A DNA stretch of 64,000 nucleotides from Flavobacterium sp. (lineage in GTDB: Bacteria > Bacteroidota > Bacteroidia > Flavobacteriales > Flavobacteriaceae): contig JANMZS010000175.1 in NCBI GenBank assembly GCA_031383535.1, positions 2,844-66,843 on the forward strand, read 5' to 3'. Each line of letters opens with the position of its first letter. Within the stretch, counting starts at the first letter, position 1. Position numbers and translations under genes: made by a program. Shown in pieces: positions 3,745-35,199 of this stretch. The notes under the pieces are model-generated. The model did no database searches. It was not told the origin of the DNA and saw nothing but the letters and a program-made list of their open reading frames with translations.

Positions 3745-3750
3745 TATAAT

Positions 3751-3862
3751 GAAACGCCCACAACAGTCGTCATTTACAAATAAAAAAATAGCTATAGGCG
3801 TTCCATCTGCCTGTCGGCAGACAGGTCTTCCAATAAAAAACAAATATTATAAACAGATGAAA
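3751..3862 (+). repeat. 112-bp direct repeat, copy 1 (leader plus ATGAAA start of the GT4 gene)
   Basis: Ungapped match to 35088-35199: last 70 bp differ at 1 base, first 42 bp match at 29 positions. Contains the palindrome tctgcctgtcggcagacagg. Confidence 0.95.
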
Positions 3863-5047
3863 CCATCAATACTATTTGTTACCACTTCTTCAAATTGGCC
3901 TTTAACCGACGGTAAAAGACAACGTACCTGGTTTTTGATAGAAGCATTATCAGAAAAATTCAAGGTAGATTTACTTTTAATTGGGTATTCTAATGAAAGG
4001 GAACAAATAGAAAAGAGTACTAAATCAATAAATAAGTTATTCTTTTTTGATTTAGCAAATTCAAATTTACCAGAAGTAGGCTATCCCAATTTTTTGATTT
4101 CGAAAAAACAGAAAGGCAAAAACAATTTTATATTAATTCAAATCCAAAATCTTTTTTTAGAACTCAATACTAAGTATCAGTATTCCTTTGTATTTAGTCG
4201 CTATTTATGGCCACTTTTGATATTGCCTTTACCAAAAGAAATTAAGGTTGTTTGTGATATAGACGATGTTTATTTTGAAGCACAAAAATCTAGAATTCAA
4301 AAAGAAACAAATTTTTTGCGTAAACTAAAACTTCAAACGTTATTTATTTTAGGTTCATTAAAGGTAAAAAAACTATTGACTCGTATTGATGTTCCAATTA
4401 TAGTAAAAGAATCAGATCGTTCATTTTACGGTTTAAAAAAAGCAGTTTGTTTGCCCAACATTCCTTTTGGATATTACATTGATAAAGAAATGTCTTCTTA
4501 TAAAAATCCTATTGACAGCCCTTTAAATTCAATTAATTTTGGATTTATAGGAAAACTAAGTTATAGACCAAATCAACAGGGTTTAATTAATTTTATAAAT
4601 AGCGTATGGAATCCTTTAATGCAAAATAAATCAAATGCAAGGTTAGTTATTGCAGGAAGCGGTGAGATTTCAAAAATTTTACAAACCACCATCGATGCTT
4701 CCAAAAATATAGATTTATTAGGGTTTGTTGAAACTCCCGAATTTTTTTGGAATCAAGTCTCTGTATTAGTAGTTCCAATTGCAGAAGGAGGCGGTTCGAA
4801 CATAAAAGTGGCAGAAGCTTTTATTTATGGAAAAATGGTTATTGCACATCCGTTTGCCTCAAGAGGATATGAAAGTTTTATAGACTCGGGCTTTTTAATT
4901 TTGCCAAAAGATAATCAAGAATGGATTAGGAGTCTTACTGCTATCGAAATTCCTTCTGCACCACAAAGCCAATTTTTATCTACAAAAGCAAAGCAACTTT
5001 TTGATTTAGAGAATTGGAATCAAATTTTACTTAACACGGTCTCCTAA
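3857..5047 (+). CDS. Glycosyltransferase, GT4-like (GT-B fold)
   Basis: DGKRQRT, GFIGKLSYRPN, VVPIAEGGGSNIKVAEA motifs. Start moved from 3749 to ATG 3857 because the extra 36 codons are the repeat leader shared with rfbA. Confidence 0.8.
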   Translation: MKPSILFVTTSSNWPLTDGKRQRTWFLIEALSEKFKVDLLLIGYSNEREQIEKSTKSINKLFFFDLANSNLPEVGYPNFLISKKQKGKNNFILIQIQNLFLELNTKYQYSFVFSRYLWPLLILPLPKEIKVVCDIDDVYFEAQKSRIQKETNFLRKLKLQTLFILGSLKVKKLLTRIDVPIIVKESDRSFYGLKKAVCLPNIPFGYYIDKEMSSYKNPIDSPLNSINFGFIGKLSYRPNQQGLINFINSVWNPLMQNKSNARLVIAGSGEISKILQTTIDASKNIDLLGFVETPEFFWNQVSVLVVPIAEGGGSNIKVAEAFIYGKMVIAHPFASRGYESFIDSGFLILPKDNQEWIRSLTAIEIPSAPQSQFLSTKAKQLFDLENWNQILLNTVS

Positions 5048-5056
5048 TAACTTTTC

Positions 5057-5914
5057 ATGTCCTATTTTAGTATTATTATTCCATCCTATAACAGAGCTCA
5101 TATTATCGATAGGGCTATACAAGGAGTTTTAAATCAAACTTTTCAGGATTTTGAAATTATCATCGTTGATGATGGGTCAATTGATAATACACAAGTAATA
5201 ATTAAAAAATACTCAAACGATTTAAGAGTTAATTACATTTATCAAATTAATGCGGGAGTTTGTGTTGCTCGAAATACTGGAGCTAAACAAGCTAATGGTG
5301 AGTACTTGATTTTTTTGGATAGTGACGATATGGTTGAAACATCATGGCTTCAAGATTTTTATGATTTAGCCCAACAAAATAACGATTTGTTGTTTTGTAG
5401 TATGAAAGTAGTGAAACAAGATTTAAGTTCCTATTTTGTTTCTGCTTTGAATCCCTTTAAGAAAATTGATTTAATGGGAAATAGTGCTGCTGGCTCGTGG
5501 GCAATAAAAAAAGATGTTTTTTTGAGAGTTGGGATGTTTGATGAAAATATAAAATTCGGAGAAAATGTTGAATTAAGATTTAGATTAAATCAAGAAGAAT
5601 TAAATATAGGTGTTATTGATAAATGTAATTTTATTTATTATGAATCACTTAATGGCGGGAGTAGAAATTTGAAAAACAAAATTGATTCTAATCTCTATAT
5701 CATAAACAAACATAATATGTTGTTTAAACGACGACCTCGTTTATTGCGATTTTATTATCAAAATATTGCGGTGGCTTATGCCAAACTAGGAATTTGGGGC
5801 AATGCACGAATTTATTTTTGGAAAGCCTATAAAGTTGATGTTTCAAAAATTAAAACTTTGTTACGATTTTTAATTACTTTATTTCCATTTATGGCAAAAA
5901 AAATATGGAAATAA
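5057..5914 (+). CDS. Glycosyltransferase family 2
   Basis: SIIIPSYNRA, VDDGSID, ARNTG, FLDSDD. Confidence 0.9.
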   Translation: MSYFSIIIPSYNRAHIIDRAIQGVLNQTFQDFEIIIVDDGSIDNTQVIIKKYSNDLRVNYIYQINAGVCVARNTGAKQANGEYLIFLDSDDMVETSWLQDFYDLAQQNNDLLFCSMKVVKQDLSSYFVSALNPFKKIDLMGNSAAGSWAIKKDVFLRVGMFDENIKFGENVELRFRLNQEELNIGVIDKCNFIYYESLNGGSRNLKNKIDSNLYIINKHNMLFKRRPRLLRFYYQNIAVAYAKLGIWGNARIYFWKAYKVDVSKIKTLLRFLITLFPFMAKKIWK

Positions 5915-6831
5915 AAGAAAAAGTTATTTACGCCGCTTTTGTAATGACTTATAAAAGACCTGCGATTTTATTGGAAACGATTAATAAATTGTTTGACCAA
6001 ACATTCCCTCCAGAAGTAGTTTTGATTATTGACAATGATTCGGAAAAAAGTGCTTTAAATATTGTAAATAATTTTCCAAAAAATAAAGTTCAATATTATG
6101 CTGTGGGTTATAATTCAGGGCCTGCCGGAGGAGCTTATTTTGGAATGAAGTTGCTTTTTGAACAAAATTGGGACTGGGTGTTGTGGACTGATGATGACGA
6201 TCCGCCTGTATTTGAAGACTCAATACAAAACATTTTTGGTTTATTAAATCAATATAAAGGAAAAAAGCCAATAGGAATGATTGGTGCTGTAGGTTCCAAT
6301 TTTAATAAACTTAAGGGTTCGATTACAAGAATTAGCAGTGGTAAGATAGAGGATATTCAGATTGTCGATTACATAGGGGGAAGTATGTCGCCTATTGTAA
6401 ATAAACAAGTATTTAACAAATCGATTTTGCCAAACCCTGATTTGTTCTTTGGTTTTGAAGATTTATCATTTTGCTTACAAGTGAAAAAAGCAGGATTTGA
6501 AATTGTAATTTTAGGTAGTGAAATGTTAAGATGGAGAGAGAAGTTTAATCGTCTAAACATTTCTACAACCTCGCATAATTTACCAGATATATCCACTTTA
6601 TGGCGCCAATATTATTCGGTTAGAAGTCTTTTTACCATCTTATATAGACAAGAAAAAGTAATAATAGGATTGTTTTATTTTATTTTTAAAACAGTTTTTA
6701 AATCTTTTTTGGGATACAAAAAGGGCTTAAGTTATGGTAACAAATATGCTAAAATTCATTTATTAGGACTATATCATGGAATGATTGGGAAAAATGGATG
6801 TGTTCTTCTACCTGAGAAAAAATATAGTTAA
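5905..6831 (+). CDS. Glycosyltransferase family 2 (rhamnosyltransferase-like)
   Basis: TYKRP, IDND, NSGPAGG, WTDDDD, FFGFEDL. Confidence 0.8.
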   Translation: MEIKEKVIYAAFVMTYKRPAILLETINKLFDQTFPPEVVLIIDNDSEKSALNIVNNFPKNKVQYYAVGYNSGPAGGAYFGMKLLFEQNWDWVLWTDDDDPPVFEDSIQNIFGLLNQYKGKKPIGMIGAVGSNFNKLKGSITRISSGKIEDIQIVDYIGGSMSPIVNKQVFNKSILPNPDLFFGFEDLSFCLQVKKAGFEIVILGSEMLRWREKFNRLNISTTSHNLPDISTLWRQYYSVRSLFTILYRQEKVIIGLFYFIFKTVFKSFLGYKKGLSYGNKYAKIHLLGLYHGMIGKNGCVLLPEKKYS

Positions 6832-6901
6832 ATATTTTTTTAATTTCAAAACTCATTAAAAAGTTTAAAAAAAAAACAGATTTAAAAGTACTGATTACAA
6901 A

Positions 6902-7852
6902 ATGAGTTCTCCCATCTATTTTTATTACCCAAATGAAATACCGAGCACTTTAGATTATAAAAGTGGTTTGGATTGTTGGATTTTAAAAACCTATTTGAAA
7001 CTAAGAGAATATAAAACAGACCTGGATATTCATTTAGTAAATTATATTCCTGATGAAGGTATCATTATCTTTCATAAAGGTTTTTTTTCAAAAGACAGAA
7101 TACCTACGGATACTCAGTTATTTGTATGCGTTCAAGCAGATTATGGACGTCACAAATATGCGCAGTGTCATATTGCCCAGAATCCATTGGGTGTTAGTAA
7201 TTTTAATTTTTCAAAACGAAGTTTTCTTGAAGAAAAATTATTTTCGTTCACTAAGAGTTATTTTATAGCACACTGGAATCAAAACGATATCATTGAAAGA
7301 AATTTAGCCAGAGGAGAAAGTTTTAAAAATGTATGCTTTTATGGAATTTCCCAAAACTTCCCCCAAGATTTATTGGAACCAAGTTTTAAAGAAAAATTAA
7401 AGAATGAAGGAATTGATCTTAAGATAATTACAGATAGCGATCAATGGAATGATTATTCTGAAACTGATTGTGTATTGGCGATTCGTGATTTCGAAAACAA
7501 ACCGCATTATAACAAGCCTTTTTCTAAAATAATAAACAGTTATATTGCTGGGGTGCCTGTTATAGCAGGAAACGAAAGCAGTTCCTTATATCTTAAAAAT
7601 GTATTAGAAATAAATATTCCTATTGTTAAAAATTCAGAAGAGTGTTTTAATGCTATCAAGCAAGTAAAAGAAAATTATTCAAGTTGCTTAAAAAATGTAA
7701 AAATTGAAAAGGAAAAACTAAAAAAGTTTCAAGATGATTTTATACTATTAAGTTGGGAAAATCTTTTACAAGAAATGCAACAGAATTATCAGTTGTGGAA
7801 AGACAGTGGCAGTTTGGTCAAAAAAATATATTTAAAATATCGAAAACGGTAA
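6902..7852 (+). CDS. Hypothetical protein, possibly glycosyltransferase-like
   Basis: 316-aa ORF in the operon; C-terminal KPFSKIINSYIAGVPVI resembles a GT-B donor-binding motif. Confidence 0.5.
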   Translation: MSSPIYFYYPNEIPSTLDYKSGLDCWILKTYLKLREYKTDLDIHLVNYIPDEGIIIFHKGFFSKDRIPTDTQLFVCVQADYGRHKYAQCHIAQNPLGVSNFNFSKRSFLEEKLFSFTKSYFIAHWNQNDIIERNLARGESFKNVCFYGISQNFPQDLLEPSFKEKLKNEGIDLKIITDSDQWNDYSETDCVLAIRDFENKPHYNKPFSKIINSYIAGVPVIAGNESSSLYLKNVLEINIPIVKNSEECFNAIKQVKENYSSCLKNVKIEKEKLKKFQDDFILLSWENLLQEMQQNYQLWKDSGSLVKKIYLKYRKR

Positions 7853-7858
7853 TGATTT

Positions 7859-8731
7859 ATGGAAAACAGTAAAGTGGCTGTGGTAGTGGTTACCTATAAT
7901 AGGAGTGAAGTAATTCAAAAAACTTTGGACTGCTTGCAAGCACAAACATACCCTATTTCTAATATAATTGTGGTAGATAATAATAGTTCAGATCATACAA
8001 TTGAAGGTCTTTTAGAAAGAAAGAAAATGGATACTCGAATTTCGATTGTTACAAGTTCTGAAAACATTGGTTATGGTGCTGGATTAGCCTTAGGAATGAA
8101 TTGGGGATTAGAAAACACAGCTGTTGATTATATGTGGTTGATGGATGACGACGTATCTAATATTCCTGAAACTCTAGGATATTTAGTAGAAAACAGTAAA
8201 AAGTATCATTATGATGCTTTGGGTTTAATGGGATATAAACTCGGATTAGGAACTAAAACTAAGGTAAATCCAAAAGATCATTCAGCTGATGTTGATTTTA
8301 TGCCAGTAGATCATGCCTTATTTAGTATTGAAACAATCAAGAAAGTAGGGGTTCCAAGCAATGATTTTTTTATGATGTGTGAGGATTATGAATATTGTTT
8401 ACGAATAAAAAAAGCCGGTTTAAAATTAGGGGTGATAGGGAATCATCATGTAAACAGGCTTGCGTTGGGTGGGGGAGAAAGGTTCTCTAGATCTACCCGT
8501 TGGAGAGGTTATTATCATTCCCGTAACCATTTACTCATTCTGAAACAGTATTTTTCTTGGTTTCGATTGGCTAGTTATGTCATTGTTCAATCAAAATATT
8601 TGGTTGCTGGGTTGCAAGCTCCAGATCGATTTGAAAGAATAAAATTTCGGTTAATGGGTATTTATCATGGATTGCTATCAGTCAAAGGAAAAACATTGGA
8701 TCCAATGACATTAACATTTAATAAGAACTGA
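7859..8731 (+). CDS. Glycosyltransferase family 2 (rhamnosyltransferase-like)
   Basis: VVVTYNRS, VDNNSSD, NIGYGAG, LMDDD, EDYEYC. Confidence 0.85.
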   Translation: MENSKVAVVVVTYNRSEVIQKTLDCLQAQTYPISNIIVVDNNSSDHTIEGLLERKKMDTRISIVTSSENIGYGAGLALGMNWGLENTAVDYMWLMDDDVSNIPETLGYLVENSKKYHYDALGLMGYKLGLGTKTKVNPKDHSADVDFMPVDHALFSIETIKKVGVPSNDFFMMCEDYEYCLRIKKAGLKLGVIGNHHVNRLALGGGERFSRSTRWRGYYHSRNHLLILKQYFSWFRLASYVIVQSKYLVAGLQAPDRFERIKFRLMGIYHGLLSVKGKTLDPMTLTFNKN

Positions 8732-8737
8732 TAATTA

Positions 8738-9850
8738 ATGAAAGTTCTTTTTGCTATTGACAGCTTACAACAAGGAGGTGCAGAACAGAGTATTGCGCAT
8801 ATCATTCGTCATTTCTCAAAAGATACTCAGGTAAGTATCCTTTATTTTTATCCCAAAGCGGATTTATTGCCAATATATCAACAACTAGGTTGTTCCATTT
8901 TTTCAATGAACTTACAAGGTAAATACAACTTTGTTAAGGGGATTATTGGAATGAAAAAAATATTGGAAGAAGTCAAGCCAGATATTGTTGTAACATCTTT
9001 GTATCGCAGTAATATTATTAGTAGAATGGCTTGTCTCCTTTCAGGAATTAGACTAGTAGGAACTTTTGTTGACGATAGTTACAATATTGAACGAAGAAAA
9101 ACATTTACGGGAGTATCAGGATTTATAAAATACTATAGTACTTGGCTATTGGATCGAATGACTTCATTTATTCCGAGTTTATGGATTGCTAATAGTAAAT
9201 ATATCGGAGATAGCAATGCCAAACATTTGGGTATTCCAACTTCAAAAATTGAAGTCATTTATAGAGGTCGAAATAGTGATGATTTTAAAAAATGGGAAAA
9301 GCAAGAAAATGATAATTTTACTTTTGTTTGTATTGGACGTTTATACGAAAAGAAAGGCTATCCAGAATTGATTCAAGCTTTTGGTAATATTGCCAATAAA
9401 TATTCGAATACCCAATTGATTATTTACGGGGAAGGTTCATACAGACCACAAATGGAAAGTCAAATTGCAGCATTAAAATTAAATCATCGAATCATTTTAG
9501 CGGGCAACGTTCCTAACGCTTGGCAAAAAATGTATGAAGCACATTGTTTTGTTTTTCCATCCCGCTTCGAGGGGTTTAGTGGTGCTCTTGTTGAAGCTAT
9601 GATGACAGGAATTCCGATTATTTCGAGTGATATTCCTATGAATTTAGAAGCGGTAGAAAATAATAAAACGGCTTTGGTACACAAACTAAAAGACGTTACA
9701 GATTTAGTTAATAAAATGGACGAAATGATTTCGAATTACCCTAATATGATGGAGATGGGAAAAATCGCAAGACAAACAGCAATGAAAAAATTTGATATTA
9801 AAAATATTGCAAAGCAATATGAAACTTTATTGATTGAAACAGTTACTTAA
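8738..9850 (+). CDS. Glycosyltransferase family 4
   Basis: GGAE, GRLYEKKG, PSRFEGFSGALVEAM. Confidence 0.9.
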   Translation: MKVLFAIDSLQQGGAEQSIAHIIRHFSKDTQVSILYFYPKADLLPIYQQLGCSIFSMNLQGKYNFVKGIIGMKKILEEVKPDIVVTSLYRSNIISRMACLLSGIRLVGTFVDDSYNIERRKTFTGVSGFIKYYSTWLLDRMTSFIPSLWIANSKYIGDSNAKHLGIPTSKIEVIYRGRNSDDFKKWEKQENDNFTFVCIGRLYEKKGYPELIQAFGNIANKYSNTQLIIYGEGSYRPQMESQIAALKLNHRIILAGNVPNAWQKMYEAHCFVFPSRFEGFSGALVEAMMTGIPIISSDIPMNLEAVENNKTALVHKLKDVTDLVNKMDEMISNYPNMMEMGKIARQTAMKKFDIKNIAKQYETLLIETVT

Positions 9851-9860
9851 AAGTAATTCA

Positions 9861-10958
9861 TTGAAAATACTCCAAATCATACAAAGAAGTCAACTTCGAG
9901 GCGCAGAAATTTTTGCCTGTCAGTTGAGTGAAGAATTGCAAAAACTAGGACATCAGGTTGATGTCCTCGTTTTGTTTGGAAAAAGAACAGATGTTTTTAA
10001 GTTTGAATTGCCTTTTTATTATTTAGAAGCAAATGAAAAAAAGCGTTGGTGGGATTTAAATAATTACAAAAAACTAGCCAAACTAATAGAAATCGGAAAC
10101 TACGACATAGTCCAGGCCAATGCTGGCGATACCCTAAAATACGCATCCCTATCTAAAAAAATATATGGTTGGAAAGCGAAGTTTGTTTTTAGAAATGCTA
10201 ATAAAATAAGTGGTTTTTTAAATAGTAGTTTTAAAAAAAATCTCAATACTTGGCTGATGAAAGAAGTTGATTGTGCGGCATCGGTAAGTGAAGAATGTAC
10301 ATTGGATTTTAAGAATACATTTCCTTTTATAAAAAACAGAATTGCATGTTTACCTATTGGGGTTGACTTAAATAATCCAAAACCCTATACTTCATTAAAT
10401 GAAATTGGAATAAAAGGTGATGGACCATTTATGCTGCATGTAGGCGGTTTTATGCCCGAGAAAAACCATAAGGGATTGATTCGTATCTTTTCAAATTTGG
10501 TAAAAGAAATACCCAATGCCAAATTAGTACTGATAGGTGAAGGCAAATTAAAAGTTGAAATCGAAGCATTAGTAATACAAATGAAGCTGTCTCAAAATGT
10601 TGTTTTCTTAGGAAGAAGAACAGATATACAGCAAATCATGCCGTGTTGCCATGTTTTTGTGTTGCCAAGCTTAATTGAAGGTTTGCCAGGCGTAATACTG
10701 GAGTCTTTTTTGAATAAACTGCCTGTAGTAACCTATAATGTTGGGGGAATTAAAGAAGTTGTTATTGATAAAAAAACGGGTTGGCTAGTTGATAAAAATA
10801 ATGAAACAGCATTTCTTGAAGCAATTAAAGAATCTCTTTCTATACCAACAGAAACAATTAGAGAAAATGCGTATTCATTGGTTACCCAAAGCTATTCTAA
10901 TGTAAGTATAGCAAACCGATTTCAAGAATTTTATCAAGAAGTGATGGTAAATCGATAG
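9861..10958 (+). CDS. Glycosyltransferase family 4 (probable TTG start at 9861)
   Basis: RGAE, EKNHKG, PSLIEGLPGVILES. The start at 9861 avoids overlap with the upstream gene ending at 9850. Confidence 0.88.
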   Translation: MKILQIIQRSQLRGAEIFACQLSEELQKLGHQVDVLVLFGKRTDVFKFELPFYYLEANEKKRWWDLNNYKKLAKLIEIGNYDIVQANAGDTLKYASLSKKIYGWKAKFVFRNANKISGFLNSSFKKNLNTWLMKEVDCAASVSEECTLDFKNTFPFIKNRIACLPIGVDLNNPKPYTSLNEIGIKGDGPFMLHVGGFMPEKNHKGLIRIFSNLVKEIPNAKLVLIGEGKLKVEIEALVIQMKLSQNVVFLGRRTDIQQIMPCCHVFVLPSLIEGLPGVILESFLNKLPVVTYNVGGIKEVVIDKKTGWLVDKNNETAFLEAIKESLSIPTETIRENAYSLVTQSYSNVSIANRFQEFYQEVMVNR

Positions 10959-10982
10959 TCTTGCAGTATTTAAATAATTTTT

Positions 10983-12431
10983 ATGCTTTTTAACTCTTTA
11001 AATTTTGCTTTCTTTTTACCCATAGTTTTTATACTCTATTGGTTTATTACAGCGAAAAATTTAAAACTTCAAAATGTACTCTTACTAGTATCCAGCTATT
11101 TTTTTTATGCTTGTTGGGATTGGAGATTTTTGTTTTTACTCATTTTTTCTACATTATTAGATTATTATACAGGGATTAAAATGTCGGATGCTAAAGATCA
11201 AAACAGTAAGAAGTTTTGGTTTTGGCTCAGTATTTCGGTAAACCTTGGTTTTCTTGGGGTTTTTAAATATTATAATTTTTTTGCAGCCTCTTTTGCTGAT
11301 GCTATTGCTAACTTTGGAATCCAGGTCAATCCTTGGACTTTAAAAGTAATCCTTCCGGTGGGAATTTCTTTTTATACTTTTCATGGATTATCTTATGTCA
11401 TCGATATTTATAAAGACAGAATAAAGGCAGAAAAGAATTTTATAGACTATTCTGTTTTTGTTAGTTTTTTTCCATTATTAGTAGCTGGTCCTATAGAAAG
11501 AGCAACACATTTATTGCCACAGATTCAGAAGAAGCGAACATTTGATTACATCAAAGCGGTAGATGGATTACGTCAAATTTTGTGGGGATTATTTAAAAAA
11601 ATTGTTATTGCAGATAATTGTGCAGAATTTGCTAATATGATTTTTGATCATCATACAGACTACTCAGGAAGCACTTTGTTGCTAGGAGCAGTATTTTTTG
11701 CGTTTCAAATTTATGGTGATTTTTCAGGCTATTCAGACATAGCGTTAGGGACGGCAAAGTTATTTGGAATCGATTTGTTACGAAACTTTGCTTTTCCTTA
11801 TTTTTCCAGAGATATTGCTGAGTTTTGGCGACGTTGGCATATTTCGCTGTCTACCTGGTTTCGGGATTATTTATACATTCCGTTGGGAGGAAGTAAAGGA
11901 GGAATGTGGATGAAAATCAGAAACACTTTTATCATATTTTTAGTCAGTGGTTTTTGGCATGGCGCCAATTGGACTTTTATTATTTGGGGATTGTTGAATG
12001 CTTTATTTATTATGCCTTCTATTATTTTTAATACCCATAGAAATAATTTAGATATAGTAGCTCGAGGGAAATATTTGCCCAGTTTTAAAGATTTTTTTCA
12101 AATTGGATTGACTTTTGGTTTAACTGTTTTTGCTTGGATATTTTTCAGGTCAGAGAGCGTTTCTCAAGCGTTTGATTATATTTCAATAATTTTTTCAAAA
12201 ACTATATTTACCATTCCAGAGTTTAGATTTAGAACTAAAGCGTGTGTAATTTTAGTTCTAACTGCTGTTTTTTTTCTATTAGAATGGATTGGACGAGAAA
12301 ATGATTTTGCTATTCAAAAATTTGGTTTTAAATGGAATAGTAAAATACGGTGGGCTTTTTATTTTCTGTTAGTTTTCTCTATTTTCTATTTTGCCGGAAA
12401 AGAACAGGTATTTATCTATTTTAATTTTTAG
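10983..12431 (+). CDS. MBOAT O-acyltransferase (AlgI/DltB-like), copy 1
   Basis: LPVGISFYTF, AGPIER, YGDFSGYSD, EFWRRWHISLS, FWHGANW (catalytic His), C-terminal FIYFNF. Confidence 0.95.
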   Translation: MLFNSLNFAFFLPIVFILYWFITAKNLKLQNVLLLVSSYFFYACWDWRFLFLLIFSTLLDYYTGIKMSDAKDQNSKKFWFWLSISVNLGFLGVFKYYNFFAASFADAIANFGIQVNPWTLKVILPVGISFYTFHGLSYVIDIYKDRIKAEKNFIDYSVFVSFFPLLVAGPIERATHLLPQIQKKRTFDYIKAVDGLRQILWGLFKKIVIADNCAEFANMIFDHHTDYSGSTLLLGAVFFAFQIYGDFSGYSDIALGTAKLFGIDLLRNFAFPYFSRDIAEFWRRWHISLSTWFRDYLYIPLGGSKGGMWMKIRNTFIIFLVSGFWHGANWTFIIWGLLNALFIMPSIIFNTHRNNLDIVARGKYLPSFKDFFQIGLTFGLTVFAWIFFRSESVSQAFDYISIIFSKTIFTIPEFRFRTKACVILVLTAVFFLLEWIGRENDFAIQKFGFKWNSKIRWAFYFLLVFSIFYFAGKEQVFIYFNF

Positions 12432-12433
12432 AG

Positions 12434-13312: not shown

Positions 13313-13369
13313 TTTCTCCACATTTAAATATTTCATTCGATAAACAACGAGCTTTTAATTACTCAAAAT

Positions 13370-14824: not shown

Positions 14825-14825
14825 T

Positions 14826-15875: not shown

Positions 15876-15930
15876 CCTTAGCGATTAAAATTTAAAAAGC
15901 TTTTAGTATCTTGTTCAAAAAAAATCACAA

Positions 15931-16941: not shown

Positions 16942-16967
16942 ATGATTGCTTTTTTATTTAAAAATCA

Positions 16968-17951: not shown

Positions 17952-17966
17952 ATTAATCAAATATAA

Positions 17967-20389: not shown

Positions 20390-20420
20390 AAACTTTATTT
20401 ATTTTGATAAAAATAACATA

Positions 20421-22142: not shown

Positions 22143-22149
22143 AATATAA

Positions 22150-23055: not shown

Positions 23056-23066
23056 AAATAATAATA

Positions 23067-23309
23067 ATGGAAAGAAAAGAACTGTTCAAAAAAGTGAATG
23101 AGATTTTTATTGATGTATTAGATATCGAAGAAGATATTGTCTTAGAAGACGCGACAAAGGCTACGGATGTTGATGAGTGGGATTCCTTAAATCACATACA
23201 ATTAGTGGTAGCTATTGAAAAAGAATTTAAAATACGATTTACTTCAAAAGAAATACAATCGTGGAATAATGTTGGCGAAATGATAGACTCAATAGCCCAA
23301 AAAATTTAA
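23067..23309 (+). CDS. Acyl carrier protein
   Basis: 80 aa, acidic, WDSLNHIQLV phosphopantetheine-Ser motif. Confidence 0.92.
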   Translation: MERKELFKKVNEIFIDVLDIEEDIVLEDATKATDVDEWDSLNHIQLVVAIEKEFKIRFTSKEIQSWNNVGEMIDSIAQKI

Positions 23310-23340
23310 TATTTGCCATAAATACCCAACTAATTCCAAC

Positions 23341-25769: not shown

Positions 25770-25796
25770 TTCAAATAAAAACGCTTATAATCCGAT

Positions 25797-27834: not shown

Positions 27835-28772
27835 TTATTAGAAATGCAACCTCAGATGATGTTCCAGCTATTGTTGCTTTATTGAAACTTAGTTTGGGAG
27901 AAGGATTAATTAAAAAAACCTCCGAAATATGGAATTTCAAACATATTGATAATCCATTCGGGGAATCCTATGTGTCTTTGGCTTTTGAGAAAGATATTTT
28001 AGTAGGTGTTAGAGCCTTTATGAAATGGCAATGGCAATTAGGGGATGATGTTTGGTATTCTTACAGAGCTGTTGATACAGCCACACATCCTGATTTTCAA
28101 GGAAAGGGAATCTTTAAAACGTTAACTTTAAAAGCTTTGGATGATGTTCAAAATAATGAAGGAGACACCTTTGTTTTTAATACACCTAATCAATACAGTC
28201 GACCAGGTTATTTAAAAATGGGATGGAAGATTGTTGATACTATTGAATTAGCAGTTGTTCCCACAATTTTGTATGCTATTCCGTATTTTTTTTCAAAACC
28301 AAAGTCTGAAAAGGCTATTAATATAGCCCAACTAAATCAACTTTGTTTGAACTACAACCTTGATTTATCGAAAAAAAATGTCATCTTCTCTCCTAAATCT
28401 GCAGCGTATTTAAAGTGGCGTTATGAAGTAAACCCTTTGCAAGAATATATTATTTCCTCTTCGGATGATTTTTATATAGCGTTTTATATCAAAAAGCATC
28501 GATTTTTTAATGAACTGAGGGTGGTTGAAACCATTAGTTTAAATCAGGAAGTTCATTTGAGCCAAATCCGAAAAATTATACTAAATTTTGCATTTCAAAA
28601 AAGATGTTCGTTAATCACTACTGCGAATAAAGATTTATTTCGATTTAAAATATATGGTAAATTTGGACCTAAGCTCACCATTAAAACACTTACCAAAGAT
28701 TCCTTTTTTATTAATACAGTCTTTACTATCAAAAAATGGAAGTATAGTATAGGCGATTTAGAATTATTTTAA
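27831..28772 (+). CDS. GNAT-family N-acetyltransferase
   Basis: VDTATHPDFQGKGIF acyl-CoA binding motif; FNTPN. Confidence 0.8.
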   Translation: MIIRNATSDDVPAIVALLKLSLGEGLIKKTSEIWNFKHIDNPFGESYVSLAFEKDILVGVRAFMKWQWQLGDDVWYSYRAVDTATHPDFQGKGIFKTLTLKALDDVQNNEGDTFVFNTPNQYSRPGYLKMGWKIVDTIELAVVPTILYAIPYFFSKPKSEKAINIAQLNQLCLNYNLDLSKKNVIFSPKSAAYLKWRYEVNPLQEYIISSSDDFYIAFYIKKHRFFNELRVVETISLNQEVHLSQIRKIILNFAFQKRCSLITTANKDLFRFKIYGKFGPKLTIKTLTKDSFFINTVFTIKKWKYSIGDLELF

Positions 28773-28775
28773 TAG

Positions 28776-29957
28776 ATGATTGATTTTGTGATTGTTTTTA
28801 TTTTATTATTTGTAATAAATCAAATTTTACTTACTAGTTTGTCTAATAAGTTTTCTTTTTTTGACAAGAAATTGATGAATAGGCTCTATTGGTATCATTT
28901 GCTTTTTTTTGCAATCTATTTTACTTATGCCACATTCAATCCATCGGATTCAAAAGCATATTATTTTGATGCGAGTATTCCTAGGGATGATTTGATGGAA
29001 CTTTTTTTTACGGGCACAAAATTTATTGTATTTGTAGCTACTCCCTTTGTTCGATTAGGATTTTCATACATTACCTTAATGCTTATTTTCTCTTGGGTAG
29101 GTTATGTAGGGTTTGTATATGCTTATCTTTTTTTTAAGGAAAACATAACAATAAATGTAACTGTATTCAAAAAATATGATTTATTAAAACTGTTACTTTT
29201 TTTACCTAATATGCATTTTTGGACAGCTTCTCTTGGTAAAGGAAGTTTAATATTTATGGGGCTGATGCTTTTTATTTATGCTTTACATTTTCCTCAAAAA
29301 AGAATATTTTCGTTACTTTTAGGGGGATTTCTAGTGTACATGATTCGTCCGCATGTTCTGCTTTTTGTTTTAGTTGGTGTTATGGTAGGCATACTCACAG
29401 GAAGAAGTAAAATGGGTTTTGGAATTAAATTTTTAGTTTTAATCATTTCGGTTGTGTTTTTGTATGTCGCGCAAAATTCTATTCTGAAAGTAGCCAATTT
29501 GGAGGGTTCTGAAAATGTAATTGAAGATTTTGATCAATTTGCCGCTGATCAATCAGGAAGACTAGTAACCTCTAATTCGGGAGTAAATATGAGTAATTAC
29601 CCTTTGCCATTAAAATTTTTTACTTTTTGGTTCAGGCCTTTATTTATCGATTCTCCTAGTGCATTAGGTATTTTTAGTTCCATAGAAAATTTAATTTATT
29701 TACTTTTATTTGCTAAAATTTGCAATAGGCGTTTTTTACGTTTTATTTTTAAAGCCCCTTATCTAGTCAAAACGTCTCTTATTATTTTTGTTTTAAGTTC
29801 TTTTGCTTTGACTTTTGTCATGTCCAATTTAGGTATTATCATGCGTCAAAAATCAATGGTAATGTATTTTGGTTTTTTTGTTATTTATTATTTTTTAGCA
29901 ACTGAGAAATTTGAAATTATGCAAAGAAACAAACCCAATCCTATTATTTTAGAATAG
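28776..29957 (+). CDS. Polytopic membrane protein, Wzy polymerase-like
   Basis: About 10 hydrophobic segments, IRPH motif, periplasmic loop, located inside the GT cluster. Confidence 0.55.
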   Translation: MIDFVIVFILLFVINQILLTSLSNKFSFFDKKLMNRLYWYHLLFFAIYFTYATFNPSDSKAYYFDASIPRDDLMELFFTGTKFIVFVATPFVRLGFSYITLMLIFSWVGYVGFVYAYLFFKENITINVTVFKKYDLLKLLLFLPNMHFWTASLGKGSLIFMGLMLFIYALHFPQKRIFSLLLGGFLVYMIRPHVLLFVLVGVMVGILTGRSKMGFGIKFLVLIISVVFLYVAQNSILKVANLEGSENVIEDFDQFAADQSGRLVTSNSGVNMSNYPLPLKFFTFWFRPLFIDSPSALGIFSSIENLIYLLLFAKICNRRFLRFIFKAPYLVKTSLIIFVLSSFALTFVMSNLGIIMRQKSMVMYFGFFVIYYFLATEKFEIMQRNKPNPIILE

Positions 29958-30052
29958 ACTTTTCGATAGTAAAATAGAAACAATAATTTCAAGACTTTAA
30001 AAAGTCACAAATACGTAAATTAATTTTTGGCAAGGAGTTAAAAGATAGTACA

Positions 30053-31024
30053 ATGAAAAATGGAGCTTTAATTATTTCACTTGATTTCGAATTAGTATGG
30101 GGACTTTTTGACCATATTGAAATTAAAGATAAGCTTACTTACTTTAACAATACTCTCGAAGCAATTCCACAAATTCTAAGTGTTTTTGAAAAGAATACCA
30201 TCCACGTAACTTGGGCTACCGTCGGGATGTTATTTAACGAAAACTGGGAGGAATGGTATTCGAATATTCCCGAAATCATACCTACTTATGCTCAAAAGGA
30301 ATTAGATGCCTATCAATATGGAAAGAAGCATCAAAAATCTGGATTAGAAAAATTCTTTTTTGCTCCAGATTTGATTAAAACCATTCAAAGTGTCAAAGGG
30401 CAAGAAATTGGCACCCATACGTATTCCCATTACTATTGTTTACAAAAAGGGCAAACCAAAGAGCAATTCGAAGCCGATATTAATCAGGCTGTTAAAATTG
30501 CGAGGAATTTTAAAATAGAATTGAAATCCCTTGTTTTTCCTCGAAACCAATTCAATCAAGACTATTTAGAAATATGTGCTCAAAAAGATATTGAAACTGT
30601 TCGTTCTAATCCTGATTTTTGGTATTGGGATACTGCTAAAAGAGAAACCCTAGCCGTAAAAATCGCACGCACGGGAGACGCCTATTTGCCTTTAGGTAAA
30701 AAATCGTATTCGGTTGAAAGTTTAGCACCAAAAAAAGTACTTTGTCAGCCCTCTAGTCGATTTCTAAGACCACAACATTCGATGACATTATTCAATAATG
30801 CTAGGCTTAATCGGATTAAGACTGAAATGATTCATGCGGCTAAAAATGGCGAAGTGTATCATTTGTGGTGGCATCCTCATAATTTTGGTGTAGATGTTAC
30901 TAATGCTATCAAAACGCTACAAGCTATTGTCGAAACATATTCGTATTGTAGTGAAACTTATGGAATGGAAAGTCTTACGATGAAGGAATTGAGAGATGAT
31001 TTTTGCACCAAAAATAATATCTAA
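30053..31024 (+). CDS. Polysaccharide deacetylase family protein
   Basis: SLDFELVWG, EIGTHTYSH, VFPRNQ, HLWWHPHNFG. Confidence 0.85.
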   Translation: MKNGALIISLDFELVWGLFDHIEIKDKLTYFNNTLEAIPQILSVFEKNTIHVTWATVGMLFNENWEEWYSNIPEIIPTYAQKELDAYQYGKKHQKSGLEKFFFAPDLIKTIQSVKGQEIGTHTYSHYYCLQKGQTKEQFEADINQAVKIARNFKIELKSLVFPRNQFNQDYLEICAQKDIETVRSNPDFWYWDTAKRETLAVKIARTGDAYLPLGKKSYSVESLAPKKVLCQPSSRFLRPQHSMTLFNNARLNRIKTEMIHAAKNGEVYHLWWHPHNFGVDVTNAIKTLQAIVETYSYCSETYGMESLTMKELRDDFCTKNNI

Positions 31025-31025
31025 G

Positions 31026-32198
31026 ATGTCAAAACAAACCTTAATTCGCATTACTACTGTTCCGCTGTCTTTAGAAAAATTACTGACTGGGCAATTGCAT
31101 TTTATGAGTTCGTTTTACAATGTAATTGCTATTTCATCAGATAAAGAAAGGTTAGAAAAATATGGACAACTCGAAAAAGTTTCTGTCTTTCCGCTCGAAA
31201 TGACACGGAAAATCACTCCGCTTCAAGACTTAATAACGGTTGTTAAGTTGTATTTTTTCTTAAAAAAAACGAAGCCATTTATTGTTCATACTCATACTCC
31301 AAAAGCAGGAATTGTCGGAATGCTAGCTTCAAAATTAGCGGGCGTACCTCACCGATTGCATACCGTTGCTGGAATGCCTTTATTAGAACAATCGGGTTTG
31401 AAAAGAGTAGTATTAGATTTTGTAGAAAAACTCACTTATTCTTGTGCCACAAAAGTGTATCCCAATTCATTTAAATTGAAGGAGATTATAATTCAAAATG
31501 AGTATTGTCATCCAGTGAAATTAAAAGTCTTAGCCAATGGTAGCTCCAACGGAATTGACACTACTTATTTTGATACTTCTCATTTTTCTGAAGAATTAAA
31601 AAATAATTTAAAAAAAGAATTAGGAATTCAATCCTCTGATTTTGTTTTTATATTCGTGGGTCGCATAGTCACCGACAAAGGAATAAATGAATTAATTGCC
31701 GCTTTTTCAGCAATTCAAAAAAACAGAAATAATATAAAACTACTATTAGTGGGGCCCTATGAGCAAGAATTAGACCCTTTGAATGAGGATACTTTGCATC
31801 AAATAGGCACTAATGAATCCATATTTTCATTGGGGTATCAACTAGATGTAAGGCCTTATTTTGCTATTGCTGACGGATTGGTTTTTCCTAGTTATAGAGA
31901 GGGTTTTCCTAATGTAGTGATGCAGGCGGGCGCCATGGGGTTGCCGAGTATAGTGACGGATATCAACGGTTGTAATGAGATTATTGAACACCAAAAAAAC
32001 GGTTGTGTCATTCCTGTAAAAAATCAAAATGCGATTCAAGAATCGATGTTACATTTTATAGAAAATAAAGAGCAATATTCTAAAATGCAAGAAAATTCAA
32101 GACAAATGATTGTATCCCGTTTTGATCAAAAAATAATGTGGAAATCAATTTTGCAGGAATATCGTAGTTTTGAATCTAAATTAATGGATGATGTATAA
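31026..32198 (+). CDS. Glycosyltransferase family 4 (PglA/CapM-like)
   Basis: HTHTPKAG, GRIVTDKG, PSYREGFPNVVMQA; start at ATG 31026. Confidence 0.9.
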   Translation: MSKQTLIRITTVPLSLEKLLTGQLHFMSSFYNVIAISSDKERLEKYGQLEKVSVFPLEMTRKITPLQDLITVVKLYFFLKKTKPFIVHTHTPKAGIVGMLASKLAGVPHRLHTVAGMPLLEQSGLKRVVLDFVEKLTYSCATKVYPNSFKLKEIIIQNEYCHPVKLKVLANGSSNGIDTTYFDTSHFSEELKNNLKKELGIQSSDFVFIFVGRIVTDKGINELIAAFSAIQKNRNNIKLLLVGPYEQELDPLNEDTLHQIGTNESIFSLGYQLDVRPYFAIADGLVFPSYREGFPNVVMQAGAMGLPSIVTDINGCNEIIEHQKNGCVIPVKNQNAIQESMLHFIENKEQYSKMQENSRQMIVSRFDQKIMWKSILQEYRSFESKLMDDV

Positions 32199-32799
32199 AA
32201 AATACTTCAAGCAAATCATCGACTTTTTTATTGCTATTATTGCATTAGTGGTTTTATCACCTTTGTTTCTGGTAATTGTTATATTTCTATTTATTGCAAA
32301 CGACGGAAGTCCTTTTTTCTTTCAAAATCGTCCCGGAAGAGACGGTGTCGTTTTTAAAATTGTAAAATTTAAAACGATGAATGACAAGAGAGATACAGAC
32401 GGAAATTTATGTTCGGATGAAATACGATTAACTAAAATAGGGAGTTTTGTCAGAAAAACTTCTCTGGATGAACTACCTCAATTGATTAATGTTGTAAAAG
32501 GTGATATGAGTTTGATAGGCCCTAGACCATTACTAACCCAATATTTACATTTGTATTCCGACTATCAAAATAGAAGACATGAGGTAAAACCAGGGATTAC
32601 AGGATTAGCTCAAGTAAACGGAAGAAACGCCATTTCATGGGGTGAAAAATTTGATTATGATGTTTCGTATGTAGACAACATATCTTTTTTATTAGATATA
32701 AAAATACTTTTTTTAACCATAAAAAAAGTATTTTTAAAAGAAGGAATTAATTCAGAAAATGCTGCCACTATTGAACCTTTCAACGGATATAATTTATGA
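32188..32799 (+). CDS. Initiating phosphoglycosyltransferase (PglC/Bac_transf family)
   Basis: KFKTM, RKTSLDELPQL, GPRP, PGITGLAQVNGRN. Confidence 0.93.
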   Translation: MMYKKYFKQIIDFFIAIIALVVLSPLFLVIVIFLFIANDGSPFFFQNRPGRDGVVFKIVKFKTMNDKRDTDGNLCSDEIRLTKIGSFVRKTSLDELPQLINVVKGDMSLIGPRPLLTQYLHLYSDYQNRRHEVKPGITGLAQVNGRNAISWGEKFDYDVSYVDNISFLLDIKILFLTIKKVFLKEGINSENAATIEPFNGYNL

Positions 32800-33125
32800 A
32801 CATTGAAAAAAAAATCGTCAGATCCATTCATAGATCTTCAACTGCTTTTGAACTTTATAAAGAGGATAAAATGTACTATCAAGCTTTGAGAATTTTTAAA
32901 GCTAATAAAAAGATATATAAATTACTTATCGAATATTCTTATTCTTGCGAAGAGACAAGTTTAAAAGAGGTGCATCATTATATTTTTCATTTAGAAGATT
33001 GGTTTGAACAATTTAATAAATTTGCTACCGAAACTATTCAGTTAGAAGATGTTTTTGTTTTTGAACGACTCAAAAATTCAATTCCTTTTCCTTCAGATTT
33101 TATCAATAAACTCAATTCCTTATGA
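32796..33125 (+). CDS. Hypothetical protein (109 aa)
   Basis: Start and stop overlap both neighbours (ATGA coupling); no motif recognised. Confidence 0.65.
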   Translation: MNIEKKIVRSIHRSSTAFELYKEDKMYYQALRIFKANKKIYKLLIEYSYSCEETSLKEVHHYIFHLEDWFEQFNKFATETIQLEDVFVFERLKNSIPFPSDFINKLNSL

Positions 33126-33880
33126 AATTTGCATTTGCTGGTGACAGAAAAATTAGTTGTACCATATTAAAATTTATAATTAGTAGAGGTTTCAAACCAT
33201 CTGCACTTTTAATTAGTGATTTTGATAAAGCTTCTCATGATGAGGATTTAATTCAAATTTCGGGATTAGAAAAGGCATTAATTTTTAGGGGAAATGAATT
33301 TAAAAACCCTGAAGTAATTCAATTTTTGTCTAGTTTAGAATTGGATTATATTTTTGGAATTCATTTTCCTTACATCATTCCTACCGAAATTTTAGCTATT
33401 CCAAAAATTGGGGTTGTTAATTTGCATCCGGCTTATTTGCCTTATAATAAAGGTTGGCACACCCCTTCTTGGGCAATAATTGAGGGTTGTCCTTATGGGG
33501 CAACACTTCATTTTATGGAAGAGGCATTAGATGAGGGCGATATCATTCATCAAAAAGCAATAGACGTTTACCCAACAGATACTGCGAACTCATTATATAA
33601 AAGAGTATTAAAGTTAGAAGAAGAAGTTTTTTTTGAGGCATTTGATTCTCTTTCAGAACTAAATCCAAAACGGATAAAGCAATTAGACAAAGGAACTTCA
33701 CACCAAAAAAAGGAATTAAAAGCATTACAAGAAATTAATATTTCAGAAAATGGCAGTGCAATTGATTTAATTAATAAAATTAGAGCCCTTACAACCAATG
33801 ACCATAATGAATCGGCTTATTTTATTTTAGATAATAAAAAAATTGGGGTTCAAATTAACTTATTTTACCAAAATGAATAA
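33122..33880 (+). CDS. Sugar N-formyltransferase (formyl_trans_N family)
   Basis: NLHPAYLPYNKG, GATLHFM, LDEGDII. Confidence 0.8.
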   Translation: MKFAFAGDRKISCTILKFIISRGFKPSALLISDFDKASHDEDLIQISGLEKALIFRGNEFKNPEVIQFLSSLELDYIFGIHFPYIIPTEILAIPKIGVVNLHPAYLPYNKGWHTPSWAIIEGCPYGATLHFMEEALDEGDIIHQKAIDVYPTDTANSLYKRVLKLEEEVFFEAFDSLSELNPKRIKQLDKGTSHQKKELKALQEINISENGSAIDLINKIRALTTNDHNESAYFILDNKKIGVQINLFYQNE

Positions 33881-35018
33881 TTCCAAAATATGGCTTTCGT
33901 CCCCACACATGGGGGGCAATGAACAAAAGTTTGTTCAGGATGCTTTTGATACCAATTGGGTGGCACCACTCGGACCTAATGTCAACGGTTTAGAAAAAGA
34001 CTTGGAGGACTATTTAGGTAATGATTCACATATTGGGGCACTAAGTTCAGGAACTGCCGCTATTCATTTAGGCTTAGTTTTGCTGGGAGTAAAGGCTGGT
34101 GATGAGGTGATTTGCCAAAGCATGACTTTTTCGGCATCGGCGAATCCTATTTTATATCAAGGCGCAATACCTGTTTTTGTTGATAGTGAGTGGGACACTT
34201 GGAATATTTGCCCTACGGCTTTAGAAGAAGCAATAAAAGATAGAATCGCAAAGGGTAAAACGCCAAAAGCCATTATTGCCGTTCATTTATATGGAGTCCC
34301 TTATAACGTACAAGCCATTAGGGAAATTGCTGACAGCTATGAAATTCCAATTTTGGAAGATAGTGCCGAGGCTTTAGGGAGTAGTTATAAAGGGCAAAAA
34401 TGCGGTACTTTTGGCGATATTGGAGTATTGTCATTTAATGGAAATAAAATTATCACCACTTCGGGAGGAGGAGCCATTGTAACTAAAACGAAAGCGTTGA
34501 AAGATAAAGCCGTTTTTTTTGCCACCCAATCAAGGGATGAAGCACCCCATTATCAGCACAGCGAAATAGGATATAATTACAGAATGAGTAATATTTGTGC
34601 CGGAATAGGTCGGGGTCAAATGGAAGTTTTAGACAATCATGTTGCATTGCGAAGAGCCATGCATGATTTTTATGTTGATTTATTTAAGAAAATTAAAGGC
34701 GTTAAAGTTTTTGAAGTTCCTAATTCAGATTATTTTTCAAATTATTGGTTGAGTGCCATCACAATAGATTATGAATTGACAAATGGAATAGACAGAGAAA
34801 CAATGCGTTTGGCTTTAGAAGCGGATCATATAGAAAGTCGACCGCTATGGAAACCAATGCACCTTCAACCAATTTTCGAGCAATATCCTTATTATGGCAC
34901 AAACGTAGCAGCAACTTTATTTGAAAATGGACTTTGTCTTCCTTCGGGTTCAAATCTCACTGACGACGAAAGAACTAGAATTAAGACAGTAGTGAACCGT
35001 TTATTTAAAAGTGAGTAA
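33873..35018 (+). CDS. DegT/DnrJ/PglE PLP-dependent sugar aminotransferase
   Basis: SSGTAAIHL, EDSAEA, SFNGNKIITT (PLP Lys), GYNYRM; start at ATG 33873. Confidence 0.93.
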   Translation: MNNSKIWLSSPHMGGNEQKFVQDAFDTNWVAPLGPNVNGLEKDLEDYLGNDSHIGALSSGTAAIHLGLVLLGVKAGDEVICQSMTFSASANPILYQGAIPVFVDSEWDTWNICPTALEEAIKDRIAKGKTPKAIIAVHLYGVPYNVQAIREIADSYEIPILEDSAEALGSSYKGQKCGTFGDIGVLSFNGNKIITTSGGGAIVTKTKALKDKAVFFATQSRDEAPHYQHSEIGYNYRMSNICAGIGRGQMEVLDNHVALRRAMHDFYVDLFKKIKGVKVFEVPNSDYFSNYWLSAITIDYELTNGIDRETMRLALEADHIESRPLWKPMHLQPIFEQYPYYGTNVAATLFENGLCLPSGSNLTDDERTRIKTVVNRLFKSE

Positions 35019-35087
35019 TGTTTAGTAAGAAAGTAACAATTCAAACAATATCATTAATTTAGTCACCCATAACTCATAACCCAATAG

Positions 35088-35199
35088 GAAACGCCCAAGA
35101 CAATTATCATTAACACACAAGAATATGATTATAGGCGTTCCATCTGCCTGTCGGCAGACAGGTCTTCCAATAAATAACAAATATTATAAACAGATGAAA
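35088..35199 (+). repeat. 112-bp direct repeat, copy 2 (leader plus ATGAAA of rfbA)
   Basis: Matches 3751-3862 at an offset of 31,337 bp. Confidence 0.95.

Follow-up and report, generated by a model that had tools for sequence, protein, structure and literature searches.

Two direct repeats in a 64,000-nucleotide (nt) stretch of Flavobacterium sp. DNA (contig JANMZS010000175.1; here called the window, with all coordinates given as window positions) each run into the start codon of a polysaccharide gene, a GT4-family glycosyltransferase gene in one case and rfbA in the other, and together they bracket a 31-kb block of capsule genes. Our analysis indicates, with a probability that we would put at roughly 0.8, that these repeats are independent copies of a dispersed, insertion-polymorphic, gene-less Bacteroidota element of about 95 nt, and that their bracketing of the block is incidental.

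Much of what a preliminary description of the window had reported about the two repeats holds. A gapless alignment of 3751-3862 with 35088-35199 gives 29/42 identity over the opening 42 nt and 69/70 over the closing 70. Both repeats end in ATGAAA, which is also the beginning of the GT4 gene (ATG at 3857) and of rfbA (ATG at 35194), and the inverted pair aacgcc/ggcgtt is found in both copies. The genes between the copies are polysaccharide genes according to Pfam, and the suggestion of a structured element with a conserved stem common to both leaders is borne out for a hairpin, by folds as well as by pair counts. The 35-nt core occurs twice in the window, compared with no occurrence expected from shuffles. 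The unit itself begins 2 bases earlier than first noted, at 3749 (ATGAAAC) and 35086 (AGGAAAC). Its general architecture consists of a 5′ end ATGAAAC, a hairpin with a 12-bp stem (ATGAAACRCCCA...TRGGYGTTCCAT), an A-rich tail, and a stop exactly at ATGAAA, this last hexamer usually providing the start codon of the next gene.

The repeat is not restricted to the window. A search of the window's own assembly (2.97 Mb in 250 contigs, 33% GC) by BLAST and with an nhmmer profile found nine full copies, all of which end in ...ACAGATGAAA, abut ATGAAA (TTTCAT on the antisense strand), and lie in a single orientation relative to the adjoining gene start. In eight of the nine, the terminal ATG opens an open reading frame (ORF) of at least 67 amino acids (aa). 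Six of these ORFs belong to unrelated Pfam families (GT4, RfbA, YkuD L,D-transpeptidase, TyrS, DUF6705/DUF5977, and LptB-like ABC ATPase); the seventh is a CTP_transf_3 cytidylyltransferase, and the eighth (copy C83) is truncated where its contig stops. After the remaining copy (C157) comes a dead frame of 24 codons, just before a Dus gene. Five copies begin no more than 17 nt past the stop of a co-directional upstream gene and are therefore located inside operons, and two are found in divergent promoter regions. The 37-nt tail (TCTTCCAATAAAAAACAAATATTATAAACAG plus ATGAAA) is identical at 34-37 of 37 positions for any pair among seven copies, the hairpin region of the same copies showing 35-56/57 identity. 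Because tails are this similar throughout, near-identity over the last 70 bp characterizes the family as a whole and does not mark a special tie between the two repeats of the window.

This dispersal bears on a proposal of the preliminary description, that the repeats form a functional recombination pair by which the 31-kb block is deleted or re-inserted, so that they would act as a capsule on/off switch or mark where a circle had integrated. Direct repeats do flank the block, with 69/70 identity at their 3′ ends, and it follows from the sequence that homologous deletion would leave rfbA behind an equivalent leader. We nonetheless regard this explanation as highly improbable. In the closest available genome (G004; about 83% identity in tyrS and rfbA), C2:117965-154596 is collinear with window positions 88-43472, including the DegT gene directly upstream of rfbA, and the element matches of that genome are only on other contigs, with none on the contig of the capsule locus. 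Since the collinear locus is present there without any copy, the block predates the repeats, which came later; arrival of the block as a circle bounded by the repeats is contradicted by the same comparison. As for a switch, the nine dispersed copies precede unrelated genes, and an empty-site arrangement (GT2-leader-rfbA), for which the preliminary description had proposed a search, was not present in any of 20 relatives. What that description had itself named as speaking against its proposal is largely what we found: the leader is a dispersed repeat, with nine copies here and 108 matching stretches in Bacteroidota, and no empty site was seen. An exact scan of metagenome contigs gave no match for the GT2-element-rfbA junction, but the intact left junction was also without a match, the strain not being represented; likewise, no record was found of the exact RfbA product in either its 290-aa or its 313-aa form. 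A rare RecA-type deletion between the copies is physically possible. With the repeat dispersed and the block ancestral, the bracketing looks incidental, two ATGAAA-starting genes of one long operon having each been inserted into separately.

Comparison of orthologous loci is consistent with insertion of the element, at tyrS to the base. In seven congeners, tyrS has no element; a conserved tatcTTTG box stands about 20-60 nt ahead of the start codon (ATGAAAAAT in three). In the genome studied here, the same flank (actatctttgtcaaaatttatttttaa) runs straight into the 5′ ATGAAAC of the element, and tyrS resumes after the 3′ ATGAAA with the same AATATTATTGCAGAATTACAATGG. The flank aligning up to the 5′ ATGAAA, we have here a base-precise filled/empty pair, and thus precise insertion. 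The native upstream promoter box is kept, and the start codon is preserved despite the insertion. At lptB, no element is present in eight relatives, three of which have a common start (ATGAAATTAAGAGC). For rfbA, the element is absent from 20 relatives, where the start reads ATGAAAGGAAT. The element-free rfbA leader of G004 (L149, G004:C2:146120-146370) reads caaacaatattataaacATGAAAGG, and the AATATTATAAAC right before its ATG is also found in the element tail; this likeness may be a coincidence, a remnant of the element, or the source of its tail.

Outside this genome, the element is spread widely in Bacteroidota. Among species-representative genomes, the pattern ATGAAACRCCCA-N25-40-TATRGGYGTTCCA matched 108 stretches in Flavobacteriales, Bacteroidales, Marinilabiliales, Chitinophagales, and Cytophagales, with no matches for the reversed-pattern control. 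Hosts include many Flavobacterium as well as Chryseobacterium, Sinomicrobium, Lutibacter, Flagellimonas, Terrimonas, and Catalimonadaceae, in addition to Bacteroidales, Paludibacteraceae, Rikenellaceae, Tenuifilaceae, and Marinilabiliales. Nine element-bearing genomes each had 2-12 exact pattern matches, the reversed control again giving none. Of 114 distinct copies tallied, 66 supply the start of an ORF of 60 aa or longer, and in 20 others the frame continues past the edge of the locus. Roughly 10 have their end at a non-genic site, such as ATGAAATAA with a terminator-like hairpin behind it, and there are two head-to-tail tandems (L067 and L077) in which both units share one ATGAAA, an arrangement that, as seen in L067, fits the element's own ATGAAA serving as a target. 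The L067 tandem (L067:19-201) is from a metagenome-assembled genome labelled Flavobacterium psychrophilum. The element is sparse in its own genus, with BLAST matches in only 2 of 24 congeners. In five Flavobacterium-like genomes (L032, L043, L069, L095, and L117; confirmed by Pfam for L032), a copy lies directly 5′ of recA, implying that some insertions are old and have been retained vertically. The family appears to be without a description in Rfam or the searchable literature: the whole window gave no Rfam match at the gathering score, positions 3650-3950 gave only chance-level matches at an E-value threshold (E of 2.5-7), and literature searches by keyword and by exact sequence string returned only primer coincidences.

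A covariation analysis of leader homologs, as suggested in the preliminary description, supports two helices, P1 and P2, in an alignment of 65 short-tail copies. Within P1 (ATGAAACRCCCA/TRGGYGTTCCAT), the R-Y pair is AU in 39 copies, GC in 24, and GU in 2 and is never unpaired. In P2, a helix of 6 bp, the CATNNN directly 3′ of P1 pairs with NNNATG, which includes the start codon. The P2 pair adjoining the ATG is CG in 51 copies, AU in 5, GC in 4, UA in 3, and UG in 1, with none unpaired, and the next is UA in 54, CG in 6, and UG in 2. The covariation score of P2 is 0.175, compared to 0.060 in shuffles and at most 0.086 with slid partners. When the first downstream ATGAAA was taken blind to pairing, 61 of 109 copies were fully complementary over four bases (shuffle mean 20.6, maximum 33). 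Nine distinct matched types of P2 were found, including a GTG start matched by CAC (L128), and in a tally of 114 distinct copies in which the closing helix was sought within 200 nt, 101 had it; of these, 88 end in ATGAAA. The CAT is common to P1 and P2, and GTTCCAT can pair with either ATGAAA. Covariation links the three bases that follow GTTCCAT to the three that precede the terminal ATG, which means that CATNNN, inside the element, is the complement of the element's own far junction.

On which strand would these helices matter? P1 has fixed mismatches in the sense strand, an invariant A.C in 65/65 copies and a C.A in 22/65 (the G-type copies), and both become G.T wobbles on the antisense strand; G.U pairs in the sense strand are rare (2-3/65). 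The antisense hairpin is predicted to be the more stable in 55/63 copies with RNA parameters (by a mean of 4.5 kcal/mol) and in 56/63 with DNA parameters, and when folded as single-stranded DNA, both window copies form P2 and P1 on either strand. The folding models are suggestive of a structure selected on the antisense strand, as single-stranded DNA or conceivably as antisense RNA, rather than as an mRNA leader fold; the turning of fixed mismatches into G·T wobbles is the reason to favor structure at the DNA level.

This pattern has to be set against the idea that the element is a cis-acting RNA leader that was copied between genes for useful expression, for instance in translational control with old and new AUGs competing for the GUUCCAU box. 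About 85% of copies are in the sense orientation immediately 5′ of start codons, and at tyrS the element is downstream of the native promoter box and would be transcribed as a 5′ untranslated region. GUUCCAU is able to pair with either AUGAAA, the fold of the sense RNA is better than that of shuffles (z = -2.6 to -3.4), and the very strong conservation of the A-rich tail would fit a role in the Shine-Dalgarno-less initiation of Bacteroidota. However, the adjoining genes are functionally unrelated, some 10 copies terminate outside genes, at sites of the ATGAAATAA type, and two are tandem, the fixed mismatches fall on the mRNA strand with the wobbles on the other, the antisense fold is the more stable one in most copies, G.U pairs are rare, and there is no Rfam match. 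In addition, predictions of how accessible the real AUG is in sense RNA vary erratically, from 0.02 to 0.79 across the nine copies. Overall, an RNA leader seems to us an unlikely explanation for the family. A related notion, that the element exposes a new AUG, was dropped when accessibility modelling of the two AUGs proved inconsistent across copies.

Alternatively, the spread could reflect duplication or gene conversion of a favorable promoter/leader cassette, in the manner of Neisseria REP2, without dedicated transposition machinery. The tail is more uniform than the hairpin loop (copy A and C83 share 37/37 positions in the tail and 35/57 in the hairpin), a mosaic that fits conversion, and no transposase was found. 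We consider this very unlikely, given boundaries that are base-exact at ATGAAA in unrelated loci across the phylum, an element consensus with no visible sense-strand Bacteroidota -7 box (TAnnTTTG), and a covariation between internal box and far junction that would be left without an obvious role.

Returning to a mobile element, which from its sequence would belong with the small non-autonomous mobile repeats, the closest mechanistic analogue is a palindrome-associated transposable element (PATE) of the IS200/IS605 family. Like such derivatives of single-strand transposons (IS608/ISDra2), the element is small, gene-less, and hairpin-bearing, and it lacks terminal inverted repeats. It has a fixed short target adjacency, abutting TTTCAT in antisense in 9/9 of its own-genome copies and 88/101 copies phylum-wide; a segment within the element, next to the foot of its hairpin, is complementary to the junctions; and the structure is better on one strand. 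It differs from PATEs in having one conserved hairpin (HP1) instead of one per end, the stem partner of its left end being mid-element rather than at the far end, and at its other end there is instead an A-rich tail, which a 6-bp helix closes. Moreover, the guide-junction pairing would be a Watson-Crick helix of 6-10 bp and not a 4-nt guide, the target 6-mer is the commonest start-codon context, and no matching autonomous insertion sequence (IS) or Y1 gene with the element's ends was found. The sequence covariation of CATNNN with NNNATG is compatible with a guide pairing with cleavage sites.

We imagine the following scheme, by analogy with the IS200/IS605 systems. The antisense strand reads TTTCAT/nnn...tail...n'n'n'ATGGAAC(hairpin)TTTCAT/, slashes marking the junctions, and the element would move in the form of single-stranded DNA. 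At the foot of the hairpin, the ATGGAA box would be the guide, pairing with the TTTCAT of the target as well as with the TTTCAT at the element's own terminus, and the n'n'n' extension would pair with the first three bases of the element. This would amount to the guide/cleavage-site logic of IS200/IS605 "peel and paste," compressed into one hairpin, with the enzyme acting in trans. Such a specific single-strand, guide-based mechanism we hold only tentatively, at somewhat less than even odds. Slightly more doubtful is the fuller picture, in which a self-guided, start-codon-homing single-strand element lands on TTTCAT throughout the phylum, rebuilds the start, and in this genome is itself parasitised by a 20-nt hairpin that is nested in at least three host repeats.

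Several points count against reading the repeats as a mobile element. None of the 114 copies contains an ORF, and clustering of all ORFs in the 108 loci revealed no recurrent transposase-like or mobility gene near the copies. The genome has one strong Y1 transposase gene (C194) and four RAYT-like genes, and the hairpins that flank the C194 gene are different from that of the element. Y1 genes at E ≤ 1e-15 are present in 9/10 element-bearing genomes and in 14/37 relatives without the element, a co-occurrence that is weak and confounded, and G004 has two element copies and no strong Y1. At rfbA, the flank in this genome is longer by about 28 nt ahead of the element, and the site is not a clean empty/filled pair. 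The compared sites fit a duplication of ATGAAA as well as landing of the element beside an existing ATGAAA, and mobility is read from presence and absence between species at about 80% identity. Copies in this genome differ by 7-39% in the hairpin region; given this divergence and the retention at recA, the family is old and mostly static. The stability bias toward the antisense strand could come partly from base composition.

Neither the element nor its nested repeat was found within 1.5 kb of the five Y1/RAYT-like genes. The C194 locus (C194:12780-14010) consists of an IS200-like Y1 transposase gene (157 aa) with its own short hairpins, aatccctaacgggatt and gtcccgtagggac, and a tandem duplication of about 100 bp downstream; it is a REP/RAYT-like arrangement unrelated to the element.

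Both window copies carry the nested repeat just mentioned. Copies C83, C157, and C159 read CCATCT/TCC, without the nested hairpin, whereas the window copies, C116, and C134 read CCATCT-GCCTGTCGGCAGACAGGTCT-TCC at the same slot. The 20-nt insert being absent from the first three, part of the conserved 70 bp is nested repeat. Its 16-mer core, CCTGTCGGCAGACAGG, has 36 exact copies in this genome (47 with one mismatch; sites include C245:14202, C245:14328, C100:3268, and C116:15063), and 60 congeners have 0-2 apiece. At least three host repeats harbor the core at a fixed slot, namely, the start-codon element, a 'ttttctatg..tctatgtggttaaa' repeat, and a 'ctccctcccctctg..ttcggggaggg' palindrome, and hairpin-less paralogues of its host repeats exist. 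Similar small hairpins occupy the same slot in the elements of other species (L032, L114, L122, and L051). Judged by these sequence comparisons, the nested 20-nt hairpin is a second, younger, lineage-specific repeat that has been amplified in this genome.

A second GC-rich module, (gacc)CGAGCGWTAGCGAACWGGCGAAGC, has 36 matches with no more than three mismatches (for example, C33:5449, C33:5658, C124:40756, C195:9635, and C246:10643); in the 'tctatg' repeat it and the hairpin occupy one and the same slot, and it is also found within other repeats. A second family of repeats that abut start codons (C95:10306, C95:19456, C147:6756, C164:60476(-), C219:1999(-), C243:16250, and C101:5175(-)) has the same type of tail as the element (CCATA..TATGACC...NNNATGAAA) and the same nested hairpin. 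In place of an intact main hairpin, its 5′ module reads AAACACCAAT... and is interrupted by the CGAGCG...GCGAAGC module.

Repeats fused to start codons are known from other phyla. Neisseria REP2 and Borrelia IR-A/IR-B are intergenic repeats with internal stem-loops that are fused to the ATG of many unrelated ORFs (Delihas 2011, PMC3184786), and REP2 has its own promoter and ribosome-binding site and marks a set of co-regulated genes (PMC3184786). The element resembles them in its lack of terminal inverted repeats, in its internal stem-loops, and in supplying the ATG of the downstream ORF, and on these likenesses they would be its closest descriptive analogues. It differs from REP2 in having no visible sense promoter box, in the unrelated genes that it precedes, and in its phylum; a covarying start-codon helix and a phylum-wide spread have not been described for REP2. 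Repetitive extragenic palindromes (REPs) and their REPIN arrangements, which are tied to REP-associated tyrosine transposases (RAYTs), are likewise short, palindromic, intergenic, long-lived, and vertically retained, and RAYT-like Y1 genes are present in this genome; the nested 16-mer hairpin, with its 36 copies, is similar to REPs in size and GC content. However, REPs are GC-rich palindromes of 20-40 bp, often set in inverted pairs around a RAYT gene, and have no tie to start codons; the element has no GTAG/CGTC head, is about 95 nt long, and is tied to start codons, and neither repeat is near the Y1/RAYT-like genes. As in the invertible-promoter switches of Bacteroides capsule loci, short inverted repeats stand before capsule genes in a Bacteroidota genome, but the arms of the element are about 34 nt apart, in one orientation, before housekeeping genes too, and show no sign of inversion.

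Four other readings were considered and set aside. An inversion switch does not fit arms about 34 nt apart and copies that all have one orientation. No GTTRRRY/RYYYAAC cores of an attC-like or integron site were apparent on reading. A sigma-70-like TTGACA in the loop has the wrong spacing and is not of the Bacteroidota promoter type. Finally, a classical miniature inverted-repeat transposable element would not be without terminal inverted repeats, as the element is, and the same ATGAAA hexamer flanks every site; that hexamer must then be target or element sequence and not a random duplication.

The features of the window are collected in Table 1.

Table 1. Element copies, their parts, and adjoining genes in the window
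Feature	Position	Strand	Remarks
Element copy A	3749..3862	+	114 nt including terminal ATGAAA; between GT2 stop (3744) and GT4 start; nhmmer E = 2e-31
Main hairpin HP1, copy A	3749..3806	+	Arms ATGAAACGCCCA (3749-3760) and TAGGCGTTCCAT (3795-3806); drifted loop of about 34 nt; folds, 65-copy pair counts
Nested 16-mer hairpin core, copy A	3810..3825	+	CCTGTCGGCAGACAGG
Nested insert bounds, copy A	3807/3809-3826/3828		20 nt; TCT repeat leaves boundary ambiguous
Closing helix P2, copy A	3804..3859	+	CATCTG (3804-3809) with CAGATG (3854-3859), including GT4 start codon 3857-3859; encloses A-rich tail; covariation, DNA fold
GT4-family glycosyltransferase gene (Glycos_transf_1/GT4-type)	3857..5047	+	396 aa; its ATGAAA is the 3′ end of copy A
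GT2 glycosyltransferase gene	2611..3744	+	Ends 4 nt before copy A
Element copy B	35086..35199	+	114 nt; degenerate 5′ hexamer AGGAAA; between DegT (stop 35018) and rfbA; nhmmer E = 2e-33
HP1, copy B	35086..35143	+	Arms AGGAAACGCCCA (35086-35097) and TAGGCGTTCCAT (35132-35143); folds
Nested 16-mer hairpin core, copy B	35147..35162	+	
rfbA, glucose-1-phosphate thymidylyltransferase family (NTP_transferase)	35194..36066	+	Its ATGAAA is the 3′ end of copy B
DegT/DnrJ/EryC1 aminotransferase gene	33843..35018	+	Upstream neighbor of rfbA here and in G004
Polysaccharide biosynthesis genes between copies	5057..33880	+	Pfam; collinear in G004 except ~16968-26650

The genes at 5057..33880 encode GT2 and GT4 transferases, four MBOATs, an AlgX-like protein, an epimerase, FkbH, methyltransferases, a GNAT protein, a deacetylase, a PglC-like Bac_transf protein, and a formyltransferase, and PglF-like, Wza-like, and Wzc-like genes follow downstream of rfbA. 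The segment of about 10 kb without a collinear counterpart in G004 (~16968-26650) holds two further MBOAT-plus-partner modules, an FkbH-like gene, and a methyltransferase. Local duplication is suggested by its MBOAT at 17967, which has 83% identity to the G004 orthologue of the MBOAT at 13370. A second stretch, 2611-6831, is diverged from or replaced relative to G004, with 54% identity in the GT2 C terminus, no match for the GT4, and 38% for the GT2 at 5905, compared to 80-89% for flanking genes; this variable glycosyltransferase segment contains copy A.

Within an operon, the element would form part of the transcript as an intercistronic leader, with possible effects on processing or translation there, rather than serving as a dedicated capsule switch. 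From its sequence, it would also leave a decoy AUG, giving short upstream ORFs such as MKHP followed by a stop, and would supply an A-rich leader. The ATG at 3749 is open and in frame with the GT4 gene and gives a 432-aa ORF whose 36-codon extension is probably spurious; the ATG at 35125 is in frame with rfbA and gives an ORF of 313 aa. Gene callers are likely to turn element sequence into false N-terminal extensions at both.

For this locus, then, the story of a capsule on/off switch is unsupported. The element presents an annotation hazard, through false N-terminal extensions such as those from ATG 3749 and ATG 35125 and through decoy start codons upstream of the real ones. In wider terms, the element connects mobile DNA with the site of translation initiation: it inserts at the most vulnerable point of a gene and yet preserves the gene, and it has spread phylum-wide. 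From the covariation seen here, a new guide-target rule could be derived for an enzyme of single-strand transposition or recombination and, should such an enzyme be found, the element would become a candidate programmable system for insertion next to start codons. The elements may also be usable as natural markers of operon-internal leaders in Bacteroidota.

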